Assembly: GCA_016182105.1 (NCBI GenBank)
Contig: JACOXZ010000010.1
Coordinates: 1-62,631, forward strand
Origin: Candidatus Liptonbacteria bacterium
GTDB taxonomy: Bacteria > Patescibacteriota > Minisyncoccia > UBA6257 > 2-01-FULL-56-20
Reading direction: 5' to 3'
Length of the DNA stretch: 62,631 nt
The position numbers were made by a program, and so were the translations under genes. This document shows, one piece after another, positions 10,275-59,864 of this stretch (position 1 is the first letter of the stretch; every line of letters begins with the position of its first letter). The notes beneath the pieces are model-generated. The model had not been told where the DNA came from and did no database searches. It worked only from the letters and a program-made list of their open reading frames with translations.

Positions 10275-10420
10275 CCCCGTCACCTTAGAAAGATTTCGTT
10301 TTTCAAAACGCTTTTTGCCAAAACACGGTTTCTACTTTTTAAAAATCTGATTTGCGAATGAAGAACGTCCTCTCAAGAAAAACGGCTGGCGCTCACATCT
10401 TTCTAAGGTGCGGGGTCAAC
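10270..10420. repeat. 151-bp inverted-repeat module B abutting the -35 of the SPW/grx/trxB promoter
   Basis: GTCAA-CCCCGTCACCTTAGAAAGAT...ATCTTTCTAAGGTGCGGGG-TCAAC. The arms are 19-20 bp with one bulged T. Confidence 0.75.
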
Positions 10421-10459
10421 AAAAAAATCCCCCCCGATCACGGTCGGGGGGGATTTTTT
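10421..10459. terminator. bidirectional rho-independent terminator
   Basis: AAAAAAA-TCCCCCCGA-TCACGG-TCGGGGGGA-TTTTTT. Confidence 0.75.
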
Positions 10460-11498: not shown

Positions 11499-11641
11499 CC
11501 CCCACACTAATAGTGGTTTGCGAAGCTAACTGCATTCCATGGTTAAATTCAAACAACCTGATTTTTCCCGAAAAACCTTGTTGCTTAGGCCTAACTCTGG
11601 CTTCGTCTAGAATGCCTAACCACTATTAGTGTGGGGGTCAA
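11494..11641. repeat. 148-bp inverted-repeat module C abutting the dsbA-like -35
   Basis: GTCAA-CCCCCACACTAATAGTGGTT...AACCACTATTAGTGTGGGGG-TCAA, with perfect 20-bp arms. Confidence 0.8.
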
Positions 11642-21730: not shown

Positions 21731-22741
21731 TCACGGCCTCAAGTTCACAACTTTTTTAGATTTAGAAGACTCGTAAATCGCCTCAATAATTTTATTTGCC
21801 GCAAGACCGTCATTGGCGTCGCCGATAATTTTTTCTTTGCCGCTTACCGCTCCCAGAAAATTTCTCCACTCATCTTCCCAACTTGAGTCTTTTAGGAATT
21901 CCAGAGTCTCTATGTCCGGAACCCCGAACTCTGGCTTTCTCTTTCCTATGGTTAAAGTCTCTGGGCCGTAACTCTTTCCTAGACCTTGAACGGCCAAAAA
22001 TCCCTTATCCCCAAAAGCTTCAAAAGAAAAAATGTTCTTCCAGTTGGTGGTACTCACATGAAAAGAAGCAGTAGTGTTTTTGTTTCTCAAAATTACAAAA
22101 GCGTTGTCTTCAAGATCGGTGTTCCAAAATTTCGTTTCGGCAATGCCATAAACCTCATCAAATTCACCAGCGAACCAGCGGCACAAATCGATGAGATGAA
22201 CTCCTTGATCCAAAAGCTCTCCGCCTCCGGAGATGTCTTTATTGAAACGCCACTCTTTTTCCATTCCAAGCCGTCCGCCGTGACCGTAGCGCCCGCGAAT
22301 AAAAAGAATCTTCCCGATAAGCCCTTCGTCAAAAAGTTGTTTCGCCTTAAAGATCGCCGGGTGGAACCGATGATTGAACCCGACTTTGACGATACGTCCG
22401 CTCCCTTCCGCCGCGTGATAAAGCTTCTCGGCTTCTTGGGCATTTTTCCCGAATGGCTTCTCCGCAAGAATATGCTTTCCGTTTTCAAGCGCCTTTAGGG
22501 CAATGGGCAGAAGAAATTTATTTGGAACGGCAATGATTACGATATCTATATCCTTCGAAGCGACGAGGTCTTCCCATCTCTCAAAAATTTGAGAGTGGTG
22601 ATCCTTGGAAAACTCCAGGGCTTTTTTCCTATCAATATCGCTTACAGCGACTAAAACTGCGCCTCCCACGTTCTCTATCACCTCAGCCCGCTTCCCGCCA
22701 ATAAGACCGGCTCCGACAATGCCAACGCGGATAGTTCTCAT
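21731..22741 (-). CDS. Gfo/Idh/MocA-family NAD(P) oxidoreductase
   Basis: IRVGIVGAGLIGGKRAE...ILAEKPF. Confidence 0.85.
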   Translation of the reverse strand: MRTIRVGIVGAGLIGGKRAEVIENVGGAVLVAVSDIDRKKALEFSKDHHSQIFERWEDLVASKDIDIVIIAVPNKFLLPIALKALENGKHILAEKPFGKNAQEAEKLYHAAEGSGRIVKVGFNHRFHPAIFKAKQLFDEGLIGKILFIRGRYGHGGRLGMEKEWRFNKDISGGGELLDQGVHLIDLCRWFAGEFDEVYGIAETKFWNTDLEDNAFVILRNKNTTASFHVSTTNWKNIFSFEAFGDKGFLAVQGLGKSYGPETLTIGKRKPEFGVPDIETLEFLKDSSWEDEWRNFLGAVSGKEKIIGDANDGLAANKIIEAIYESSKSKKVVNLRP

Positions 22742-22853
22742 CCCGTTAGAAGCAGATCGCGATCTAGGCGAATCTGCAGATTTATTTTATCGTAATGACT
22801 ATACATTGATTGATATTCAGAGTTTTTGCAACGAGATCGCGGCTTCTAACGGG
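22742..22853. repeat. stop/start-bridging inverted-repeat element, copy 1 (112 bp)
   Basis: CCCGTTAGAAGCAGATCGCGATC...GATCGCGGCTTCTAACGGG. It fills the whole gap between the stop at 22856-22858 and the start at 22741. Confidence 0.85.
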
Positions 22854-22855
22854 AC

Positions 22856-23683
22856 TCATATTTTTCGGCGCAGAGTATAAAGTTCTGTCTTTGAAATCTC
22901 TTTGATCATTTCTTTATCCCATTTTCTCCAATCATCCCAAACCGCGCTTAGGAACTTGCCGGTAAGTCCATTAGAGACGCTCGAGGCAAGAAAAGTAGAG
23001 AGCTCGGCTGATTTTTCAGGGGCTACGCCGCCATCGGCTTTCTGCTTTAAGAGTTCTTGATATTTGGACTTCCCGACTTTTTTCTCGCCGGCTTTTAAAG
23101 CTTCTTCGAGGAAACTTGTGTTTACAGGACCAGGAGCGATGCAGTTTATATCAATTCCAAAATCTCTGACTTCAGCAGCGATGGTTTCGGTTAAGCGAAC
23201 AATGGCAACTTTTGAGGAATTATAAGCGCTGAAGTTAGGGAGAGGGCCGTCGCCGCCTCCGGAGAAATTAATAATTTTTCCGGATCGATTTTTGATCATC
23301 AAAGGCAGGACTTCGCGGATCATGTGGAAGGTTCCAAAAACATTGATTTCATAAGTTTTTCGCCAAAGATCAACGTCAATCTCTGAGGTGGGGCCGATTG
23401 GACCGTAGATTCCAGCGGCATTAACTAAGATATCGATTTTGCCGAATGTCTTCTTGGCTTCCTCGACTAAAGATTTAACCAAAGCATAATTTGAAACGTC
23501 AGCGGGGAAGACGGCGGGGGCGGGGAAATCTTTCTTCAAGTCAGACCGGGCTTTTTCGAGCTCATCCCTGGATCGAGCCGAGAGCATTACTTTAACGCCT
23601 TCCTTAAGAAAGGAACGGGCAACAGCCAAGCCGATGCCGCGGCTGCCGCCGGTGATCAAAGCAATTTTACCCTCGAGAATCAT
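22856..23683 (-). CDS. short-chain dehydrogenase/reductase (SDR)
   Basis: KIALITGGSRGIGLAVA...YNSSK. Confidence 0.9.
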   Translation of the reverse strand: MILEGKIALITGGSRGIGLAVARSFLKEGVKVMLSARSRDELEKARSDLKKDFPAPAVFPADVSNYALVKSLVEEAKKTFGKIDILVNAAGIYGPIGPTSEIDVDLWRKTYEINVFGTFHMIREVLPLMIKNRSGKIINFSGGGDGPLPNFSAYNSSKVAIVRLTETIAAEVRDFGIDINCIAPGPVNTSFLEEALKAGEKKVGKSKYQELLKQKADGGVAPEKSAELSTFLASSVSNGLTGKFLSAVWDDWRKWDKEMIKEISKTELYTLRRKI

Positions 23684-34116: not shown

Positions 34117-35151
34117 TTACAGAAGAGTTAAATTCGGCGCAAGATGCAATTCCTCAAACGTTAATGCGCGAGTAATAGCTGGCTTATGCATGACGCGCAA
34201 CACTGCATTCGCGATATCCACCTTGGTCGGATAATAGAATTCGGTGAGTGCTGTCGAAGTCGGACAGGGAACATTAGGGCAAGAGAGAGCGCTTGGCGCT
34301 TCCCGCAATTGCAGCGATTTCTGGGCTACTTTGGAGATAATTTCGGATCCGACACTGAATGCGCCGTTCGTAGTGTCTACCGTAAGAAGTCGTCCCGTCT
34401 TCCGCATCGAAGCAAAAATCGTTTCGTAATCAACTGGGTTCAGGGAAACAAGATCGATTAATTCAACGCTCACCTGTTCTCCAAGAAGAGAAAGTGCTTC
34501 GTAAGCGGCAACGAAACCATCGCCGTAGGCGAGAACGGTTATGTCCTTGCCCGGAACCGCCACCTTTGCATATCCCAGAGGTTCGGTGTAAAGCTCGATT
34601 GGCACATCTTGTTTCACTGGGAAGATCCACCGAGACTCCAGCATGACCACGGGATTATTGTCGCGGAGAGCGGAAACTAGGAGTCCCTTTGCCATGCGGG
34701 GCGTTGACGGTATCACCACCTTGAGGCCGAGCGCGTTCCCAAACAATGCGTAGAGCGACTGTGTATGCTGGGGGCCATTGCCCCACTGCCTTCCGACGTT
34801 GATACGGAGCACTATCGGCACCGGATTGCCTCCGCCAAACATATAGTTCCATTTTGCCGCTTGGGTAATTATCTGGTCAGCGGCCAATAAACTGAACTCC
34901 ACTCTGCCATGGTGCACGATAGGCCTAAGTCCATTGATCGCCGCCCCAACGGCCATGCCGGTAAAACCGCCCTCTGAGTCCGGCACGTCGAAAACTCGCT
35001 CGGGATATTTTGACGCGAGTCCGGTCGCAGTACCGTCCGCGGCATTTCTATAGGTAGCACCCAGACCAACGAAAAAAATATTTTTGTCGGCCTCCATCAT
35101 CTGGTCCGTGGCTTCTCTGAGAGCCTCGGTAAATTTTATGATTCTAGGCAT
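34117..35151 (-). CDS. TPP-enzyme E1 beta subunit (transketolase-like pyrimidine-binding + C-terminal domains)
   Basis: 344 aa. VFDVPDSEGGFTGMAVGAAINGLRPIV...VVMLESR. Confidence 0.85.
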   Translation of the reverse strand: MPRIIKFTEALREATDQMMEADKNIFFVGLGATYRNAADGTATGLASKYPERVFDVPDSEGGFTGMAVGAAINGLRPIVHHGRVEFSLLAADQIITQAAKWNYMFGGGNPVPIVLRINVGRQWGNGPQHTQSLYALFGNALGLKVVIPSTPRMAKGLLVSALRDNNPVVMLESRWIFPVKQDVPIELYTEPLGYAKVAVPGKDITVLAYGDGFVAAYEALSLLGEQVSVELIDLVSLNPVDYETIFASMRKTGRLLTVDTTNGAFSVGSEIISKVAQKSLQLREAPSALSCPNVPCPTSTALTEFYYPTKVDIANAVLRVMHKPAITRALTFEELHLAPNLTLL

Positions 35152-35152
35152 A

Positions 35153-35280
35153 CCCCGTAGGAAATTAAATATTTTCCGTTAGCGTCTGACGACCTTGTAG
35201 TGTGTTTGGGGAATGATTTCATATTTGTTGATTTTAGCTTTAGCTCGAAAATATTTATTTTCTCGCTATTTCCTACGGGG
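35153..35280. repeat. stop/start-bridging inverted-repeat element, copy 4 (variant termini)
   Basis: CCCCGTAGGAAAT...ATTTCCTACGGGG (13-bp arms). The upstream stop TAG lies inside the arm and the downstream ATG is 1 nt outside. Confidence 0.8.
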
Positions 35281-36223
35281 CATATAAATCGGTATAAAGA
35301 CTCTCTTTGGGCGGATAAGACGCATTCAGAGCAAAATCAATACTATCCTGAACGGTCTTTTTAATGCCGTCTTCAGCACTTACGATTTCCTGCTCCGAAA
35401 CGCCGCCGTGGAGAACGGCCTGCCTCATCTTCTTTATGGAATCTTTTTTTAATCTGTTCTCTGCGGTATCTTCCTCTCGGTACTCCTCTTCAAAAATCGG
35501 ACCGCTGTGCGCCATATGCCTGTAGGTCATACATTCGAGAACGGCGGGGTGGCCCATCCGTGCGCCAGCTATAAGTTTTTTTGCTTTTCCCAGAACATCC
35601 TCGTAATCATTGCCGTCGGCTTTGACGTATTGAATCCCAAAACCAGTTACGATTCCTTGAACATGGTGCGCGTCCGATCTCCTGTCTTTCAATTTGGAGT
35701 TTGTGGAGAATAAATTATTTTCAACCACCAATATCAACGGTAATTTGAATAATGCGGCGAGGTTAAACGTCTCATATACTATGCCTTCTTCGAAGGCTCC
35801 GTCGCCCAAGAAAACAACGGTCACGTCCGGCTTATTATTGTACTTTTGTTCAAAAGCAGTGCCGCACGCGAGCGGTACTACGCTTCCCAAAATCGGCGTT
35901 GAACCCATAAAATTCACCGATCGATCCATCATGTGCATAGAACCGCCCTTGCCACGGGAAGAACCGTTCTCCTTCCCTAAAAGCTCACAAATCATTTTTT
36001 TTAGATCGCCGCCTTTCGCCAAGTAATGACCGTGGGAACGATGATTGCCTAAAACCTTATCTTCTTTCTTGAGGGCGTCGCAAACGCCGACGGCTACCGC
36101 CTCTTGGCCAATGTAGAAATGGACGAAACTCATGATCTTCTCTTTCAGATATAGCGCGACCAGTTCTTCTTCCGCCGTCCGTATCAGGAACATTTTTTTG
36201 TAGGCCTCGAAGAGCGTGTTCAT
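35273..36223 (-). CDS. TPP-dependent dehydrogenase E1 alpha subunit
   Basis: 316 aa. GQEAVAVGV...GKGGSMH...VVFLGDGAFEEGIVYETFNLAALFKLPLILVVENN. Confidence 0.85.
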   Translation of the reverse strand: MNTLFEAYKKMFLIRTAEEELVALYLKEKIMSFVHFYIGQEAVAVGVCDALKKEDKVLGNHRSHGHYLAKGGDLKKMICELLGKENGSSRGKGGSMHMMDRSVNFMGSTPILGSVVPLACGTAFEQKYNNKPDVTVVFLGDGAFEEGIVYETFNLAALFKLPLILVVENNLFSTNSKLKDRRSDAHHVQGIVTGFGIQYVKADGNDYEDVLGKAKKLIAGARMGHPAVLECMTYRHMAHSGPIFEEEYREEDTAENRLKKDSIKKMRQAVLHGGVSEQEIVSAEDGIKKTVQDSIDFALNASYPPKESLYTDLYAP

Positions 36224-43979: not shown

Positions 43980-44006
43980 TGCGCCGCTAACGCGCGCGAA
44001 GCTTTA

Positions 44007-44278
44007 GAACCCATCTCAAAAATCCCTTCGGCCGCGATATAGGCAAATCTTTCGCGGCGCAAGAAGCAAGGACGAAGGTGTATCCTATGATACTCCGAGT
44101 CCGAAGCGACGTGGTGCCGCGAAAGATTGGCCATATCCCCAGGGGGTTGCGGAGATTTTCTTCTCCCACTACGTTGCGGCTTCGTCGGAGTGGCACAAGC
44201 CACACATTCCTCGCCGCGCCTTGCGTAGAGAAGAAAATCTCTCGCAACGCGGCTAGAAGGGATTTTTGAGATGGGTTC
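44007..44278. mobile_element. E1: 272-bp structured (MITE-like) element bounded by terminal inverted repeats
   Basis: Perfect 22-bp terminal inverted repeats GAACCCATCTCAAAAATCCCTT / AAGGGATTTTTGAGATGGGTTC. Internal 14+5 bp helix GTTGC-g-GAGATTTTCTTCTC / GAGAAGAAAATCTC-tc-GCAAC. Homologous to E2 in reverse orientation. Confidence 0.75.
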
Positions 44279-45215
44279 GAATAAAAGTTTTCAATCTTTT
44301 ATAGATAATCCATACGCCCCAGACGACCGGATAAATACCGTATTTCTTCGCGAAATAAATATCCATAATCTTTCTGTATTTTCTGCGCTTCCACGGAGTT
44401 TTGTTGATGTAGTAAACATATTCCGGCTGATAGGGAAGCGCTGAGAGAAAATACCACGGTTTTCCGCCGCCCGCGAAGTGGACAACGAGCGGATCGGGTT
44501 CGTTGTAGGGATATGCCCCTATGGGTATCGCGGCGGCTATGAGATTGTATTTTATGCCAAGCTCTCTGTAGTCGCCCGCAAACACAAGGTTAAGAGCGTC
44601 TTGCTCGTGATATCGCAACTTGTCCGGATACTCATAGATCAACCTGTGAAGTTTTTCTTCTATGCCGCGCTTTCTCCAAAGCTCCAAATCAACAAGAAGC
44701 ATTCCGACACTGAAATACGCGGACTCTTGCGACGCAATGGGCCAATTGATGTCTTTGCGCAGCTTTTTCAAATGCCCCTGTCTTTCTTCTTGCTGACAAT
44801 CCGCGATTGCTCCTATTGTTTTCCTGCCCAGGTCCACGTTAAATAGTTCGGAAATATCCCCTCGAATCACCACGTCAACTTCAAGATTGATTACCCTGCG
44901 ACATGTAGGGGGAAGAAAACGCCCCAAATAAACGCGGTGAAAGGCCTCTACTGGAGCGTGAAATCCCTTAGACAAATCACCAAGCGGCAGTCCTTGGTAA
45001 AGCTTTTTATCAGGAAGAACATAGTTTATCGTAAATCCATATTTCTTCTCCAGAGTCTCCAATCGCTCTTTATTTTTTGCTGATATTCCAAAATCTACGA
45101 CGTAAAGGCTTATCGGGTAATCCCCTTTTTTGTTTTCGAAAAGAGAACACAAGGCAACCCCAAGGAGCATGGCGTAATTATCATTCGTGGCAAAAACAAC
45201 AGATACTTTTTCCAT
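44253..45215 (-). CDS. glycosyltransferase family 8
   Basis: VSVVFATNDNYAMLLGVALCSLFENK...NLEVDVVIRGD. Start taken at MEKVS. The last 8 codons (RTHLKNPF*) lie in the E1 terminal repeat. Confidence 0.85.
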   Translation of the reverse strand: MEKVSVVFATNDNYAMLLGVALCSLFENKKGDYPISLYVVDFGISAKNKERLETLEKKYGFTINYVLPDKKLYQGLPLGDLSKGFHAPVEAFHRVYLGRFLPPTCRRVINLEVDVVIRGDISELFNVDLGRKTIGAIADCQQEERQGHLKKLRKDINWPIASQESAYFSVGMLLVDLELWRKRGIEEKLHRLIYEYPDKLRYHEQDALNLVFAGDYRELGIKYNLIAAAIPIGAYPYNEPDPLVVHFAGGGKPWYFLSALPYQPEYVYYINKTPWKRRKYRKIMDIYFAKKYGIYPVVWGVWIIYKRLKTFIRTHLKNPF

Positions 45216-45237: not shown

Positions 45238-46098
45238 CTACACCTTATACCAGACAAACAAACGGAGAAGTGCCACTAGATTCCAAAATATAAGTTTAAT
45301 TCTGTCCCACATCTTTAAAGATTTTAAGCGCAATATAAAGATCATATTCGGGAAGTAAAGCGGTGAAAAAAACAACACAAACCTGACTTTGATATTGGAT
45401 AATACGCGTTTAATTCGCATAGACACACGTGGATTGGGATCAAGAACAAAAATTTTGGTGCGCTTATAAAAAAGAATTTCGTCGACGAGGGTAAAATGTC
45501 CCCTGACCAAACAGCGAAAAAGGAAGTCATACTCAAGAAATGGCTTGTCAATAAATTTACAATCAACAATTTTCTCGCGCCTCCAAACTCCATACGTCAT
45601 GTTGCCCTTTCCCCCAAGAATTGTAAGCAGAATAAATTCCTTGAGGCGTCCGTACAGATCCTTCTTAAACGTGAAAAATAATTTCGGATCTTCTTTTTGT
45701 GTCCTGCCTAAATCGTCGAAATGCATGAGTTTAGATATGGCAGCAATCGCTTCCTTGTCCGCATCCAAGGCGGCTATACATCTTTCCACGAAAGTCGGCG
45801 CCCGCTTATCATCGTCCGAAGCCCATATAAAATACTCACCTCTGGCATTTTTTTTGAGATATTCGAAGTTTCTGGCGTGGCCTATATTCGATCTCTGCCG
45901 TATATATTTTATACGTCGGTCCTTTTTCGCGTATTCCTCGCAGATCCGCGGAGTGTCGTCGGTAGAGGCGTTATCGGATATAACCAGCTCAAAATTTCTA
46001 TACGTCTGCGCAAGCAGCGAATCCAATGCCTCGCGCAAATAAGATTGCCCGTTATGCGTAGCTAAGCCGATGCTTACCAATTTTTCTTTAGAACCCAT
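45238..46098 (-). CDS. glycosyltransferase family 2
   Basis: MGSKEKLVSIGLATHNGQSYLREALDSLLAQTYRNFELVISDNASTDDT. The start ATG at 46098 and the GGAGG RBS lie inside the E2 terminal repeat. The track ORF extension to 46242 is read-through into E2. Confidence 0.85.
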   Translation of the reverse strand: MGSKEKLVSIGLATHNGQSYLREALDSLLAQTYRNFELVISDNASTDDTPRICEEYAKKDRRIKYIRQRSNIGHARNFEYLKKNARGEYFIWASDDDKRAPTFVERCIAALDADKEAIAAISKLMHFDDLGRTQKEDPKLFFTFKKDLYGRLKEFILLTILGGKGNMTYGVWRREKIVDCKFIDKPFLEYDFLFRCLVRGHFTLVDEILFYKRTKIFVLDPNPRVSMRIKRVLSNIKVRFVLFFSPLYFPNMIFILRLKSLKMWDRIKLIFWNLVALLRLFVWYKV

Positions 46099-46366
46099 CT
46101 TAATAATACCTCCAGCCCGCGTTGCTGGCGATTTTCTCGTATCCGCAAGGCTTGTCGAGTGAGCTGTGCTTGATGCACTGCGATCGAGGCGTAACGCAGC
46201 GGGACGGGAAAATCGCCGCAACCCCAAGGGGGATATGGCCAATTTCCGCAGTACCGGCGTCGCTTCCTCCTCGGAGTACCACAGGAGGGTACACTTTCGT
46301 CGTCGTTCCTTGGTCTTGCAGAAATTGGCTCATATCGCGAGCGGAGATATTATTAAGATGGGTTCT
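46091..46366. mobile_element. E2: 276-bp structured (MITE-like) element bounded by terminal inverted repeats, inverted relative to E1
   Basis: Terminal repeats GAACCCATCTTAATAATACCTCC / GGAGATATTATTAAGATGGGTTC (1 mismatch). Internal helix GTTGC-t-GGCGATTTTC / GAAAATCGCC-GCAAC. The core GGGGATATGGCCAAT is the reverse complement of the E1 ATTGGCCATATCCCC. Confidence 0.75.
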
Positions 46367-55997: not shown

Positions 55998-56936
55998 TTA
56001 TTGAGACGAAAGTTCGCGCACAATGCTTTTATAGTCAATGTCCATTGCGTCTGAAACAGGATTCAGCCAGTTATCTCCAAGCTTACGTTTTATGAAAATA
56101 TCTTTTTTAAGACTGATGCCGCGCGCGGCTGCGAGCAAAGAAAAACAGGATAAATTCTCGCTTTTGCTGTCGTCGAACACGACTAGCTTTCCTGTTTTGC
56201 GTACGCTCCTCAAAATCGGCTCCCAGTCAATAGGAGTCATATAGCTTACATTAAAAACCGCGGGTTTCAAGCCGGTTTGTTCCATTTCGAGGCCGAGCTG
56301 CCAGCCGTACGGGAAGGAAAAATTAAAAGTGACGATCGTCGCATCGCTACCGTCCCTATACTGCACGAACTTCATATCCTTGTCCGCAAGGATCGGCTCT
56401 CCGGGATCGATAATATCGTCTTTATACATCCTCTGACTGAAACTTATAATGCGGAATCCGGGTCTGCCAAAATGGATGTCGATGATTTTCTCTGTGTCAT
56501 ACTTATTGGTAACCGCGTAGCCATCAATCCTCGCCATAGAACAAAAATCCGCGAAGTTATTGGAACTCGACTGTGGCCCTTCATATCCCATATCAACCGT
56601 GACTGGCAATATCGTGAATGAGCCCTTAGCGTGCTTGCTATTTCTTATGATGTTATAGGTGTTAACCAGCTGATCAATGCCCAAGAAAAGAAAATCAAGT
56701 TGTTTCATGAAGAATGCCGCCTTCCCGCCGCCAAGCATCACGCCGAACCCAAACCCGACAAGCGAATTCTCGGTGTTTGTCGTATTGATGATCATGCCCG
56801 TCTCTTTTACCGCAAATCCTTTCGTAAAACCGCTGATACGGGAGCCGGCGCTAACGTTCTGACCATAAACCACGAGTCCGTCGTGCGAACTGACCGCATT
56901 ACGCAGAACCGCGTTGACGTGTTCAAGATATTTCAT
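55998..56936 (-). CDS. divergent E1 beta-like (transketolase C-terminal-like) subunit
   Basis: 312 aa. NTTNTENSLVGFGFGVMLGGGK, in the position of the E1-beta EagfvG motif. Follows an E1-alpha-like gene. Confidence 0.65.
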   Translation of the reverse strand: MKYLEHVNAVLRNAVSSHDGLVVYGQNVSAGSRISGFTKGFAVKETGMIINTTNTENSLVGFGFGVMLGGGKAAFFMKQLDFLFLGIDQLVNTYNIIRNSKHAKGSFTILPVTVDMGYEGPQSSSNNFADFCSMARIDGYAVTNKYDTEKIIDIHFGRPGFRIISFSQRMYKDDIIDPGEPILADKDMKFVQYRDGSDATIVTFNFSFPYGWQLGLEMEQTGLKPAVFNVSYMTPIDWEPILRSVRKTGKLVVFDDSKSENLSCFSLLAAARGISLKKDIFIKRKLGDNWLNPVSDAMDIDYKSIVRELSSQ

Positions 56937-57034
56937 CCCGTTAGAAAATTAACAAACATAGTTTTATTGTTGGATTAATTTGCTGATTAAGTGTTTTCTT
57001 GTGGTAATTCATATCTCTTTAATTTTCTAACGGG
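56937..57034. repeat. stop/start-bridging inverted-repeat element, copy 2 (98 bp)
   Basis: CCCGTTAGAAAATT...AATTTTCTAACGGG (14-bp arms), between the stop at 57037-57039 and the start at 56936. Confidence 0.85.
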
Positions 57035-57036
57035 AT

Positions 57037-57960
57037 TCATGCTATTTCTTTTTGGAGCGCGGTAAATTGCCTGCGCGCGTCCTCTTCTAAGACCGACTGG
57101 TCAATGTGTTTTGTGAGAACAAATATCGGATCTTCGTCGCTCTGTTTAATCAGGGGCCATTCATTCAAGGCAACTTCCGGAGCAGGACCAGAGTGATAGT
57201 TAATGAACTCGCCTTCCGGAAACTCCGGAGAACTTGGCAGGCGCCGTTCACCGAGCGTGGCCACCCTCACTTCAACGCACGCTGGCGCTCTATCCTCTAT
57301 AGTAAACTTCTTAATGTCCTTTAGGGTATCTATGTAACGATACGGGTCATTGCCCTCAAGATGGATGTAGCGGATGTTCATAGATTTTGCGAGAAGAGAG
57401 AGGTCAATATGGCAACGCCTCTGGTCAATACGAGTGGACATGGACCACTCATTGTTCTCTATCAAAAAAATGACAGGGAGTTTCATACTTTGCGCCATGA
57501 GTATATTTTCGTAGAATGACCCCTCTTCTATGGCACCGTCCCCCCCCATAACGATGGTCACGTTCTTTTTGCCGGCTACCTTACCAGCCATCGCGAGGCC
57601 CACCGCGACCGGAAACTGATTGCCAAGGATGCTTGATGTAAAAACAATATTCCTTTCTGGGTTTAAAAGATTCATTGAGCCGGAGTGTCCGGCATTGAGT
57701 CCCGTCGGCTTCAAAAAGTATTCGTCAAGAATTGGACGCAGCTTCCCCGCGCGGGCGAGATTATAAGCTATGTTGCGGTGCGTGGGGAGCAAGTTGTCAT
57801 CCTTTTCTAAAATCTCGCTCACAGAAACCGCGATAGCCTCATGACCCAGCGCAAGGTGAACAGACACCTTAAGTTTTTTGGCTTTATACTCTTCGTTCAC
57901 GATCATCTGACTGATACGCAAACGAATAATCTCTTCAGCAATTTTATTTTTTGAATTCAT
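57037..57960 (-). CDS. TPP-dependent E1 alpha-like subunit
   Basis: LGHEAIAVSV...GHSGSMN...IVMGGDGAIEEGSFYENILMAQSMKLPVIFLIENN. Confidence 0.8.
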   Translation of the reverse strand: MNSKNKIAEEIIRLRISQMIVNEEYKAKKLKVSVHLALGHEAIAVSVSEILEKDDNLLPTHRNIAYNLARAGKLRPILDEYFLKPTGLNAGHSGSMNLLNPERNIVFTSSILGNQFPVAVGLAMAGKVAGKKNVTIVMGGDGAIEEGSFYENILMAQSMKLPVIFLIENNEWSMSTRIDQRRCHIDLSLLAKSMNIRYIHLEGNDPYRYIDTLKDIKKFTIEDRAPACVEVRVATLGERRLPSSPEFPEGEFINYHSGPAPEVALNEWPLIKQSDEDPIFVLTKHIDQSVLEEDARRQFTALQKEIA

Positions 57961-57964
57961 CTCG

Positions 57965-58864
57965 TTAAGATCCGAGCGTGCTTGTATAGGGATCGATGGT
58001 CTTTATGCCTTCTTTAAAACCGATCTCTGGTTTCCATCCTAAAAGCTCCTTTGCTTTTTTATTGGAAGGGTTGCGCATATTCGCATCGTGAGGATTCGAT
58101 TCTATAACCTTCACTTTTTTATGAAACAGCTTCTCGCTTTCACTTACAACATCCCCCATCGTTATCATCTCATCGCCTGAAAGATTGAATATCTGAAAAT
58201 CGTTCCTGCCAAAAGCCAGACGGATGCCTCGAGCAATATCTACGACGTGTACAAAGCGGCGGCCTGACTTACGGGAACGCATAAGCGTCACGGTGTCATT
58301 GCGCTTTACGTCATCCGCGACAGATTCCACGGCACACCAATCATCTTTGCGGGGCCCGTAGACAATAGCAAAACGTAAAATAGTTACCGGGATGAATCCA
58401 CGCTTATATTGCTCGCGAAGGTTCGCTTCGCTCACGAGCTTTGAAAGCGCATATTCGGAGGTGTGGCCTGTGATATCAATGAACGAATCTTCATCTTTTT
58501 CTTCATCACCCACGAATTTCTCATATACCCATTCGCTTGAAGGAAATATGAGTTGTTTCGCTTTTTTCGCCTGGGCTATGCGCATCACATTCAGGAGCCC
58601 CATAACATTCGTCGCGAAACATTCATACGGCTTGCCGGCGCACTGGCTGTCGCGCGAAAGTGCGGCAAGATGCACAATCGCGTCTGCATCTTCTGGAAAA
58701 CTATCGGCAATTGCAGAATCTCTGACGTCACCGATCTTAAACCCGTAAGAAAGTTCATTCTTCTTAAGAAGATCGAAGCCAATAACTTCAATGCCCTCCC
58801 TCAAACATTGTCTAACTAGCTCTGTTCCTATGAAACCCTCAGATCCGGTTACGATGATTTTCAT
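57965..58864 (-). CDS. NAD-dependent epimerase/dehydratase
   Basis: MKIIVTGSEGFIGTELV...YALSK. Confidence 0.85.
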   Translation of the reverse strand: MKIIVTGSEGFIGTELVRQCLREGIEVIGFDLLKKNELSYGFKIGDVRDSAIADSFPEDADAIVHLAALSRDSQCAGKPYECFATNVMGLLNVMRIAQAKKAKQLIFPSSEWVYEKFVGDEEKDEDSFIDITGHTSEYALSKLVSEANLREQYKRGFIPVTILRFAIVYGPRKDDWCAVESVADDVKRNDTVTLMRSRKSGRRFVHVVDIARGIRLAFGRNDFQIFNLSGDEMITMGDVVSESEKLFHKKVKVIESNPHDANMRNPSNKKAKELLGWKPEIGFKEGIKTIDPYTSTLGS

Positions 58865-58984
58865 CCCGTTAGAAGCAGATCGCGATCAACACGATTCTGC
58901 AAGGTTATTTTATGGCAACGATTATGCATCGGGTAAAATTATAGTTTTAACAATTTTAACAAAGCGATCGCGGCTTCTAACGGG
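58865..58984. repeat. stop/start-bridging inverted-repeat element, copy 3 (120 bp)
   Basis: Its termini are identical to copy 1 (23 nt on the left, 20 nt on the right). The upstream ORF stops at the TAG inside the arm (58977-58979). Confidence 0.85.
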
Positions 58985-59864
58985 ATTCATAGTCACGAAT
59001 TGTTTTTTTAATTCCTGTTTTTATATCAACCAGCGGACGCCAGCCGAGATCTCTACGTATATTTTTGAGCCCCGCATAGGCTGCATTCTGAAGTTTCCCG
59101 CGCGATGTACGGAAAAATGCGTTGTAATATTCCCTACTCGCTCCCATTTCTTTGCAGACCATCTCTGCGATGTCTCGCACAGGCGTGAGGTGGCCCGAGC
59201 CCAGGTTGTAAGTCGCACGACCCTTCCCACGCAGGGCGGCATCTGCAAACGCCCGCGCCACATCCGACACATATATGAAATCACCCTGTGCGAGCGGATA
59301 CTTGAGCCGAAGCGGAACATTTCCTAGAACGGTGCGCATTATGTATGGTATAAGTGAGCCGGTCCTTTGTCCATATCCATAAGGGTTGAAGGGACGCAGC
59401 CAGATAAAATCCATATTTCTTTCCTTCGCAAGCTCCTCTCCCATAAGATGAAGGGCGTGTTTCGCTGCTGTAAACGCAGTCACTGGCGTAATGCTCATTT
59501 CCTCGTTAAGCTTGCCGATGCTCTTCCCGTATTCAAAAGAGCTTCCAGCCGCAACTATTTTCTTACAGCCGATATCTGCAAGAGCGGAAAAAATATTAAG
59601 ACTTCCCTCAAGGTTTTTCACGCTTTGTGCGTATGAAAAATCGGGAATGCCTTCCCAGGCGAGATGAACCGCAACGTGAGGCTTGAATTTTTTAAGCCGC
59701 CCTTTCCATTTCGCGATGTCAGAAAGATCGCCTTTTATAAAATCGATGCCGCGCTCCTGATGGTTTTTGCGGGAGAGCACAAGCAGACGATGCCCCCGTT
59801 TTTTAAGTTCTTGAATCGTGTAACGGCCTATAAAACCAGTGCCTCCAGTCACGAATACCCTCAT
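58977..59864 (-). CDS. NAD-dependent epimerase/dehydratase
   Basis: MRVFVTGGTGFIGRYTI... Confidence 0.85.
   Translation of the reverse strand: MRVFVTGGTGFIGRYTIQELKKRGHRLLVLSRKNHQERGIDFIKGDLSDIAKWKGRLKKFKPHVAVHLAWEGIPDFSYAQSVKNLEGSLNIFSALADIGCKKIVAAGSSFEYGKSIGKLNEEMSITPVTAFTAAKHALHLMGEELAKERNMDFIWLRPFNPYGYGQRTGSLIPYIMRTVLGNVPLRLKYPLAQGDFIYVSDVARAFADAALRGKGRATYNLGSGHLTPVRDIAEMVCKEMGASREYYNAFFRTSRGKLQNAAYAGLKNIRRDLGWRPLVDIKTGIKKTIRDYESR

Follow-up and report, generated by a model that had tools for sequence, protein, structure and literature searches.

Inverted-repeat elements in a Candidatus Liptonbacteria contig: probable miniature transposons that split and rebuild start codons

Results

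Four elements at gene junctions

[quoted passage not shown] Copy 1 (22741..22854, minus strand, 114 nt) has T..A ends, belongs to what we call the ‘CGCG’ subfamily and lies between an upstream SDR gene (22856..23683) and a downstream Gfo/Idh/MocA gene (21731..22741), both on the minus strand, with the 4-nt repeat TGAG at 22855-22858 and 22737-22740. Copy 2, the 35153 copy (35153..35280, minus strand, 128 nt), has C..G ends and the arms CCCCGTAGGAAAT...ATTTCCTACGGGG of a sister family; it separates an upstream E1-alpha gene (35273..36223) from a downstream E1-beta gene (34117..35151), again both on the minus strand, and is flanked by TATG at 35281-35284 and 35149-35152. Copy 3 (56936..57035, minus strand, 100 nt), with T..A ends and an AT-rich interior, is found between an E1_dh gene (57037..57960) and a transketolase_C-like gene (55998..56936), both on the minus strand, with TGAA at 57036-57039 and 56932-56935. 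Copy 4 (58864..58985, minus strand, 122 nt), also T..A-ended and of the ‘CGCG’ subfamily, lies between two epimerase genes, upstream 58977..59864 and downstream 57965..58864, with TGAA at 58986-58989 and 58860-58863. The original prediction for this DNA had described four inverted repeats at these places, read in mRNA sense on the minus strand and flanked by the direct repeats TGAG, TATG, TGAA and TGAA, and all of them are present.

Three of the copies share the exact arms TCCCGTTAGAA…TTCTAACGGGA and the 35153 copy is a variant. Six exact matches to the 11-mer TCCCGTTAGAA are found in the window, all of them in the arm pairs 22741/22854, 56936/57035 and 58864/58985, when our own arithmetic puts the number due to chance at about 0.03 for the 62.6 kb, counting both strands. 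An inverted-repeat scan confirmed the perfect complementarity of the terminal arms that had been claimed, over 13, 18 and 14 nt in copies 1, 3 and 4 and over 13 perfect pairs, or 16 nt at 94%, in the variant. The RNA folds of the four copies have energies of -37, -42, -23 and -32 kcal/mol (z = -4.9 to -6.2 against shuffles).

The open reading frame (ORF) table also bears out how closely the stop and start codons had been said to hug the arms. The genes 21731..22741, 55998..56936 and 57965..58864 begin their ATG with the final A of the 3' arm, and the ATG of 34117..35151 lies 1 nt past the arm of the 35153 variant. The upstream TGA ends 1 nt ahead of the arm at copies 1 and 3; in copy 4 the 5' arm itself contains the upstream stop, a TAG, as does that of the 35153 copy, where the whole ATG is duplicated. 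Removal in silico of the element and one repeat gives an ATGA overlap at copies 1 and 3, an 8-nt overlap (ATGCCTAG) at the 35153 copy and a 23-nt overlap at copy 4. The expectation that deletion would restore ATGA in the first two copies thus holds for copy 1 and fails for the 35153 copy; it is copy 3 that restores ATGA, and there an empty orthologous site confirms it.

The window holds two separate split thiamine pyrophosphate-dependent E1 alpha/beta (transketolase-like) pairs, at 34117-36223 and 55998-57960, within nucleotide-sugar gene clusters. In both pairs an element lies exactly at the alpha|beta junction.

Family size, anatomy and host range

The canonical family, to which copies 1, 3 and 4 belong, was counted with a pattern that required exact 10-nt arms and a gap of 72-102 nt, in one genome per species. 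This gave at least 120 loci, and at least 120 further loci in metagenomes carry the sister family (CCCCGTAGGAAAT...). A total of 141 canonical copies was collected for the counts that follow, and the figures rest on the matches listed (at least 120 genome loci, L001-L120). The majority of the canonical matches listed come from Patescibacteria (the candidate phyla radiation, CPR), including Saccharibacteria, Paceibacteria, Kaiserbacteria and many others. Matches outside the CPR were found in Omnitrophota, Planctomycetota, deltaproteobacteria and Thermodesulfovibrionales, and as they include contigs of 141 kb to 1.24 Mb (the 1.24-Mb contig being deltaproteobacterial) these are not mis-binned CPR fragments. 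The names carried by homologues of the window's proteins point to a genome of the Patescibacteria/Paceibacteria, whereas one window protein looked up by exact sequence is not on record. The closest relatives come from samples H41, H43 and H51 of the Hainich groundwater series. A scan of viral contigs with the canonical pattern returned two matches, both of them one identical palindrome in a different and unrelated context and without duplications, and carriage by phages was rejected on this basis.

The elements are approximately 50-145 nt long, the copies measured ranging from 51 to 145 nt against a usual bound for MITEs of about 500 bp, and have no conserved coding capacity. Their terminal inverted repeats measure 11-22 bp, with core arms of 11 nt that are exact and that extend to about 22 nt with one small asymmetry, whilst the interiors differ widely between subfamilies. 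The canonical ends read YCCCGTTAGAA... / TTCTAACGGGR and those of the sister family CCCCGTAGGAA / TTCCTACGGGG. One extra base pair stands outside the CCCG...CGGG core, being T..A in 74 of the 141 copies and C..G in 59-60. Of 140 copies, 87 are flanked by a perfect 4-nt repeat, of 14 kinds in all, among them TGAA (36), TAAA (18), TGAG (10), TGGA (6) and TCAA (6); most canonical duplications fit T-N-N-A/G and most of those in the sister family Y-A-T-R. At the gathering score, tRNAs were the only Rfam 15 matches, both in the window and in four loci that bear elements.

The start codon is the constant feature

In 76 of the 141 copies the base that directly follows CGGG opens a long ORF. The left side of these start-codon copies carries a relic of the original start codon: the six bases read ATGxxT in 54 of the 76, in forms such as ATGAA, ATGAG and ATGGA, and the relic ATG has gone in the other 22, where it reads for example ATT or ATA. 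Position depends strongly on the terminal pair, with T..A-ended copies at a start codon in 64 of 74 cases and C..G-ended copies in 11 of 60; within the CPR the numbers at starts and away from them are 48 and 8 for T..A against 6 and 22 for C..G (Fisher p = 1e-8). In 8 of the 11 C..G start-codon copies ATGAA forms the left flank and GTGAA the right, from which it follows that the terminal base belongs to the element and that the duplication is 4 nt (TGAA). Models with a duplication of 5 or 6 nt were rejected, as agreement at the sixth base is limited to 19 of 85 copies and the C..G copies at ATG contradict both. Away from starts the C..G copies occupy intergenic GTAAAC, GTTGAC or GTTTAC sites.

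Positions 4-5 of the gene are purine-purine in approximately 94% of start-codon copies, against a baseline of about 45% (AA, GA and AG together, with GG excluded). No start context is commoner than ATGAA, since 25-33% of genes have a second codon that opens with AA. The purine-purine excess indicates a real target preference alongside survivorship. The feature that is constant across the copies is insertion into a start codon (A|TG-R-R) that is rebuilt by the terminal A or G.

Stop-to-start junctions are a by-product

The original prediction took translationally coupled stop-start junctions to be the target, and this was not upheld by the wider sample. Among the 76 start-codon copies, the upstream stop lies within the left repeat, as a former ATGA overlap, in 12; the TAG of the arm serves as the upstream stop in five; the stop is 1-12 nt away in 12; the upstream ORF ends 13-200 nt away in 34; and 13 have no ORF upstream on the same strand. 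The filling of a junction from stop to start is a by-product limited to genes that originally overlapped, about 17-29 of the 76 copies. What did stand is that both flanking ORFs are left intact. The elements bring stop codons of their own: the 5' arm contains TAG, the 3' arm TAA. A further stop, TGA, comes from the duplication. The ORFs opened by the relic ATG end at variable positions; among the short ones the closing codon is the 3'-arm TAA in 15 copies and the overlapping TGA in five.

A TATAAT-like box lies 4-12 nt upstream of the relic ATG in 24 of the 76 copies, and these are insertions into leaderless genes. An enrichment for leaderless genes as such was considered and set aside, the 24 of 76 being only a modest excess over the 19-21% of all genes that have such a -10 box. 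In crude scans, Shine-Dalgarno (SD)-like motifs were found at 8% of gene starts in the window and the CPR loci versus 28% in the non-CPR loci, and a -10 box (TATAAT-like) 4-12 nt upstream at 19-21% of starts versus 5% in the non-CPR loci, so that the genomes of the window and the CPR loci appear, from sequence, to be poor in SD motifs and rich in leaderless genes. The four genes downstream of the window copies do lack an SD sequence, as had been remarked, but this does not set them apart: with only about 8% of starts having one, its absence is a property of the genome and not of these four genes. An SD motif upstream of the relic ATG was found in just nine of the 76 copies, and SD motifs inside the elements are scattered. 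A search for an internal promoter gave one weak match (9/12) in copy 4 and none in copy 1, no better than shuffles, and a consistent internal promoter was accordingly rejected for these two copies.

The association with sugar operons, which had been part of the original description, is not general. The 76 downstream proteins fall into 123 Pfam families, most of them represented once, and housekeeping genes are hit: topA (DNA topoisomerase I), the ATP synthase alpha and beta genes (atpA/D), ftsW, ClpP, UvrD and PGK are among the downstream genes, as are class I and II tRNA synthetases, FtsK, SecDF and four PilC-type proteins. A preference for sugar genes was discarded on this evidence. Essential genes lie downstream, and insertion must be compatible with expression. 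Homologues of the genes that flank the window copies were not found among the genome loci listed, which number at least 120.

Empty, refilled, decayed and nested sites

The empty site in related genomes reads …ACATGAAATAT…. At the copy-3 junction, locus L254 is empty and reads ...GAAATAACATGAAATATTTGGAACAC, a plain ATGA overlap, with a neighbouring protein that is 77% identical. The window reads ...GAAATAGCATGAA, the element and then TGAAATATCTTGAACAC, and removing the element with one TGAA gives the empty site of L254 exactly; an orthologous empty site with an intact ATGA overlap, which the original prediction had pointed to as a check, is thus on record. The copy-1 junction has a syntenic operon without the element in L127, closer relatives (L124 and L122) carry one, and in L129 a sister-family element occupies the start of the same gene. 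At the copy-4 site, L252 (91% identity) has an element of another subfamily, with an unrelated interior and a compensatory arm change, and L254 has a decayed copy with two broken arm pairs.

In L021 two elements split by ATGAAT stand ahead of one gene. Tandem or nested copies of this kind were found at L021:7674-7895, L093:434-642, L150:3371-3627 and L190:3773-4029, some with a spacer of just 6 nt (ATTCAT, GTATGC). Their arrangement shows repeated insertion into a start codon regenerated by an earlier copy.

Two related loci have further rearrangements. At the copy-3 site, L252:4100-4150 has neither an element nor a clean empty site; a 32-nt piece that opens with TCCC is present, containing the 10-nt direct repeat AATCCCTCAA twice and adding five residues to the N-terminus of the downstream protein. 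L252 is a close relative, and the piece is possibly a scar left by excision or deletion. The element that L122 has at the SDR|Gfo junction (L122:3984-4012, also in L121 and L123) bears a nested 30-nt insertion, CCCTCGGGACTGAGTCCTCGGGACGAATG, in its 3' part, which contains the direct repeat CCTCGGGAC. The relic ATGAG of L122 has changed to ATAAG and the upstream gene keeps a stop (TAA).

Other repeats in the window

Two related intergenic elements, to neither of which a strand was assigned, complete the set. The first (10275..10415, 141 nt) has the arms CCCCGCACCTTAGAAAGAT / ATCTTTCTAAGGTGACGGGG and C..G ends, and its 4-nt repeat TTGA lies in a GTTGAC site right after a terminator-like hairpin. 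The second (11499..11637, 139 nt) has different arms (CCCCCACACTAATAGTGG...) and C..G ends with the 4-nt repeat TCAA in a GTCAAC-like site; the signature of insertion is shared despite the difference in arms. The hairpin that adjoins the first element, at 10422-10459, is a perfect 16-bp stem with a G/C core and flanking runs of A and T (AAAAAATCCCCCCCGA...TCGGGGGGGATTTTTT), and to judge by its sequence it looks like a bidirectional intrinsic terminator.

Two GC-rich elements of about 278 bp are found at 44004-44281 and 46090-46366, with inverted ends of 24-26 nt (GAACCCATCT...AGATGGGTTC) and internal inverted repeats. They lie between co-oriented genes or over their starts, TAAAG follows both, and there is no obvious target duplication at either; their appearance suggests another family of repeats, or else a structured RNA. 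The occurrence of GCGATCGC within two copies brought cyanobacterial HIP1, and with it a cyanobacterium, to mind, a suggestion that was dropped as the octamer occurs once in the window versus two expected by chance.

Discussion

A probable mobile element that rebuilds the start codon

Direct observation covers the inverted ends and the duplications, sites both empty and filled, recurrent insertion, decay, the spread across phyla and the biases towards start codons and in orientation. The elements are short and noncoding, with inverted ends, a duplication of fixed length (4 nt) and variable sequence, dispersed copies and polymorphism for presence and absence, and we regard it as probable that they are MITEs that split and rebuild start codons. 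The MITE-like nature put forward in the original prediction is in this respect well founded, given the inverted ends, the 4-nt duplications, the many copies and the empty orthologous site.

In this reading the canonical T..A form enters a start codon just behind its A, at A|TG-R-R. TGRR is copied as the duplication and the last A of the element remakes the ATG, with C..G copies remaking a GTG in the same manner; the duplication on the left keeps a relic ATGA and, where the genes had overlapped as ATGA, preserves the upstream TGA stop. Because the arms carry TAG and TAA, upstream frames close within a few codons and no fusion protein is made. Insertion is likely to be close to neutral in genomes that are gene-dense, poor in SD sequences and rich in leaderless genes, and target preference and survivorship would jointly concentrate the copies at start codons. 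A transposase acting in trans would presumably mobilise the elements; judging by the 4-bp duplication and the CC ends, it might at a guess be a DDE enzyme like that of IS1380 or IS5.

On the mRNA the arms are predicted to fold into a hairpin with the stop and the start at its base. The helicase activity of the ribosome reaches approximately 11-13 nt ahead of the P site, so that a ribosome stopping just before the hairpin would have opened the outer helix. A ribosome that ends the upstream ORF, or the short ORF of the relic AUG, could melt this outer helix of 11-13 bp and expose the rebuilt AUG for a predicted SD-independent initiation or reinitiation. RNase III cleavage is known for Correia elements and for the processing sites of phage T7, and the same enzyme might cleave the bulged stem, a candidate route for promoter-proximal and leaderless targets.

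Several points weigh against this interpretation, and it should be considered with them in mind. The census drew on a biased sample, and the start codons within it were deduced from ORFs only. No parent element was found, in the sense that about 2 Mb of loci yielded no repeat pair 400-4000 bp apart. The base outside the 4-nt duplication tends to equal the terminal base of the element (A by T..A copies, G by C..G copies), and this is so away from start codons too. Between elements that share a site, identity is 84-91% versus 60-76% at the 4-fold degenerate sites of the flanking genes, a comparison that is weakened by the fact that start codons are hit recurrently, so that same-site elements need not be orthologous. 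Finally, in the ‘CGCG’ subfamily, that of copies 1 and 4 of the window, the start codon lies at the end with the 4-nt bulge in 33 of 36 copies and in none is the element reversed; as a symmetric cut-and-paste transposon does not predict a bias in orientation, some strand-specific constraint must also act.

A possible functional RNA module

This last point leads to the best of the alternatives, namely that selection retains the element (or, at the least, the T..A ‘CGCG’ subfamily) at the starts of genes primarily as a functional RNA module, be it an RNase III-type processing site at the bulge on the 3' side, a stabiliser of the mRNA 5' end, or a device for SD-independent coupling or initiation, with mobility explaining the spread only. 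We consider this possible but rather unlikely. Besides the lock of orientation to the downstream gene, the stem has a conserved asymmetric bulge (AUCU / ACCU / UCCU) on the gene-proximal strand, 13 bp above the base, and a partner in the 3' hairpin that covaries with it (GCAGAT/ATCTGC, ATAGAT/ATCTAT, ATAGGG/TCCTAT), the mean best match of bulge and partner being 4.4/6 versus 3.85 ± 0.105 in shuffles. The element is tolerated at essential genes, its identity exceeds that of the 4-fold degenerate sites, and a compensatory change from A-U to G-C was found in the arms of several copies (L252, L040, L082). However, such paired changes are also expected if one transposase binds both inverted repeats, and mismatches in the core arms, at eight G·U versus four A·C on the sense strand, do not differ significantly; for the inner region, bulges and common descent confound the corresponding counts. 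The interiors are highly variable between subfamilies, one of which (AGG-hairpin-CCGTA) is found in both orientations at start codons, and neither a consistent promoter nor an Rfam family accompanies the elements. Orthologous genes work without the element, and the decaying copy of L254 persists with its broken arm pairs.

A mixed reading, which we hold to be quite unlikely, is that the T..A elements are mobile elements that home to start codons and whose hairpin is an active, portable expression module. The outer helix of 11-13 bp would set the upstream stop, or the 5' end of the mRNA, against the rebuilt AUG, and the orientation-locked bulge with the 3' hairpin would direct processing or SD-independent initiation or reinitiation. 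If true, this would explain both the tolerance on essential genes and the subfamily that is never reversed. A stronger version would have the integration machinery recognise start-codon DNA or the structures of transcription starts, and not just the pentamer.

Two unlikely readings: recombination sites and bypass cassettes

That the elements might be sites for a tyrosine recombinase, integron attC or dif/lox-like, that mark gene cassettes is very improbable. The core boxes of attC, which stands in arrays beside an integrase and attI, are RYYYAAC (R'') at the 5' side and GTTRRRY (R') at the 3' side, to which the TTCTAAC and GTTAGAA of the arms bear a resemblance; the size of 50-145 bp, the conserved ends around a variable centre and the one-sided bulge recall a folded attC, a circularised element would give an 11-4-11 inverted-repeat junction like that of dif or lox, and the window copies sit between co-oriented genes. 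The order of the boxes is nevertheless reversed, with GTTAGAA 5' and TTCTAAC 3' and the GTT/AAC ends facing outward, and the 4-nt flanks vary by site as target duplications do, leaving no fixed crossover core. The neighbours are core housekeeping genes and not cassettes, many copies are solitary and at promoter-proximal genes, and the empty site has no recombinase-binding arms.

Programmed translational bypass, as in T4 gene 60 and the mitochondrial byp elements, takes the ribosome between matched take-off and landing codons of a single ORF across a gap that contains a hairpin. Scarcely credible is a cassette of this type, in which the ribosome would initiate at the relic AUG and slide to the identical AUG-R-R beyond the hairpin: identical pentamers (ATGAA, ATGAG, ATGGA) do surround a stable hairpin in most start-codon copies, and at leaderless targets it is the relic AUG, not the real one, that retains the original promoter or 5' end, but target-site duplication fully accounts for the matching flanks, the gene is kept in the 22 of 76 copies from which the relic ATG has gone (ATT, ATA; ATAAG in L122), C..G copies have unmatched flanks (ATGAA versus GTGAA), and a nascent-peptide signal is impossible with take-off at the first codon.

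Implications

If the preferred interpretation, of MITEs that insert into start codons, is confirmed, these would be transposons that split a start codon, repair it with their own terminal base and bear stop codons in their arms, a manner of insertion that would permit life in the densest bacterial genomes known, even on essential genes. The host range, across the CPR and several uncultivated phyla, points to a widespread transposase and to gene flow between groups. Hundreds of genes with a strong hairpin that ends one base into the AUG, and without an SD sequence, constitute a natural experiment in initiation, through which the SD-independent and leaderless initiation of CPR bacteria becomes directly testable. 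There is also a practical consequence for metagenome-assembled genomes, in which the elements create ‘intergenic gaps’ of 100 nt, relic starts and short spurious ORFs that will mislead gene callers.

Comparison with known systems

The arm sequences were not found in any relevant paper, and no publication on MITEs in CPR bacteria was found. Targeting of start codons is absent from the MITE reviews consulted, a 2024 review of MITEs containing neither ‘start codon’ nor ‘stop codon’, and we found no earlier description of MITEs that target and regenerate start codons. The elements have every structural hallmark of a MITE except a known parent insertion sequence that shares the inverted repeats and encodes the transposase.

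One of the nearest precedents is Chunjie, a MITE of Geobacter uraniireducens that sits within an operon without disturbing it, as its description (Chen et al., 2008) is relayed in PMC3184786 and PMC10969869. According to those accounts it too is short and noncoding, with inverted ends, direct repeats, many copies, a stable hairpin, intact operon ORFs and empty sites, and differs in its length of 178-235 bp, its 21-bp inverted repeats, its 9-bp direct repeats and its occurrence in one species. The present family, by comparison, measures 50-145 bp, makes a 4-bp duplication, occurs in several phyla, and lands in and rebuilds the start codon.

The Correia elements (CREE) of Neisseria and the ERIC elements of enterobacteria are likewise hairpin-forming MITEs that are co-transcribed with the neighbouring genes. 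Correia hairpins are substrates of RNase III that alter the stability and expression of the downstream mRNA, and by analogy Correia is most likely the nearest counterpart, at the RNA level, of the bulged stems described here. Correia elements have 26-bp inverted repeats, a TA duplication, an IHF site and promoter elements, are known from one genus and are not known to sit at start codons. The window family is unrelated to them in sequence, has different arms and a 4-nt duplication, and lacks the hallmarks by which a CREE is recognised. REP and BIME sequences are imperfect palindromes of 20-40 nt, without target duplications and associated with a RAYT transposase; the window elements, in contrast, are 50-145 nt long and have 4-nt duplications.

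The REP2 repeats of Neisseria and certain inverted repeats of Borrelia (PMC3184786) resemble the window elements in lying immediately upstream of genes and supplying an ATG. A promoter and a ribosome-binding site come with those repeats as well, and they are not transposon-like (PMC3184786), whereas here the first base of the start codon alone comes from the element and there is no consistent promoter or SD sequence. Rickettsia palindromic elements (PMC10969869) are similarly mobile palindromes of compact genomes that leave the host gene functional, but they insert in frame within coding sequence and are translated, whilst the window elements stand outside ORFs and have stop codons in their arms.

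In their accumulation where insertion is harmless, the elements are also akin to safe-site transposons such as Tn7. At attTn7, Tn7 relies on dedicated target-selection proteins and on one site per genome; the safe site of the present family is instead the short A|TGRR, which is common to a quarter to half of all gene starts.

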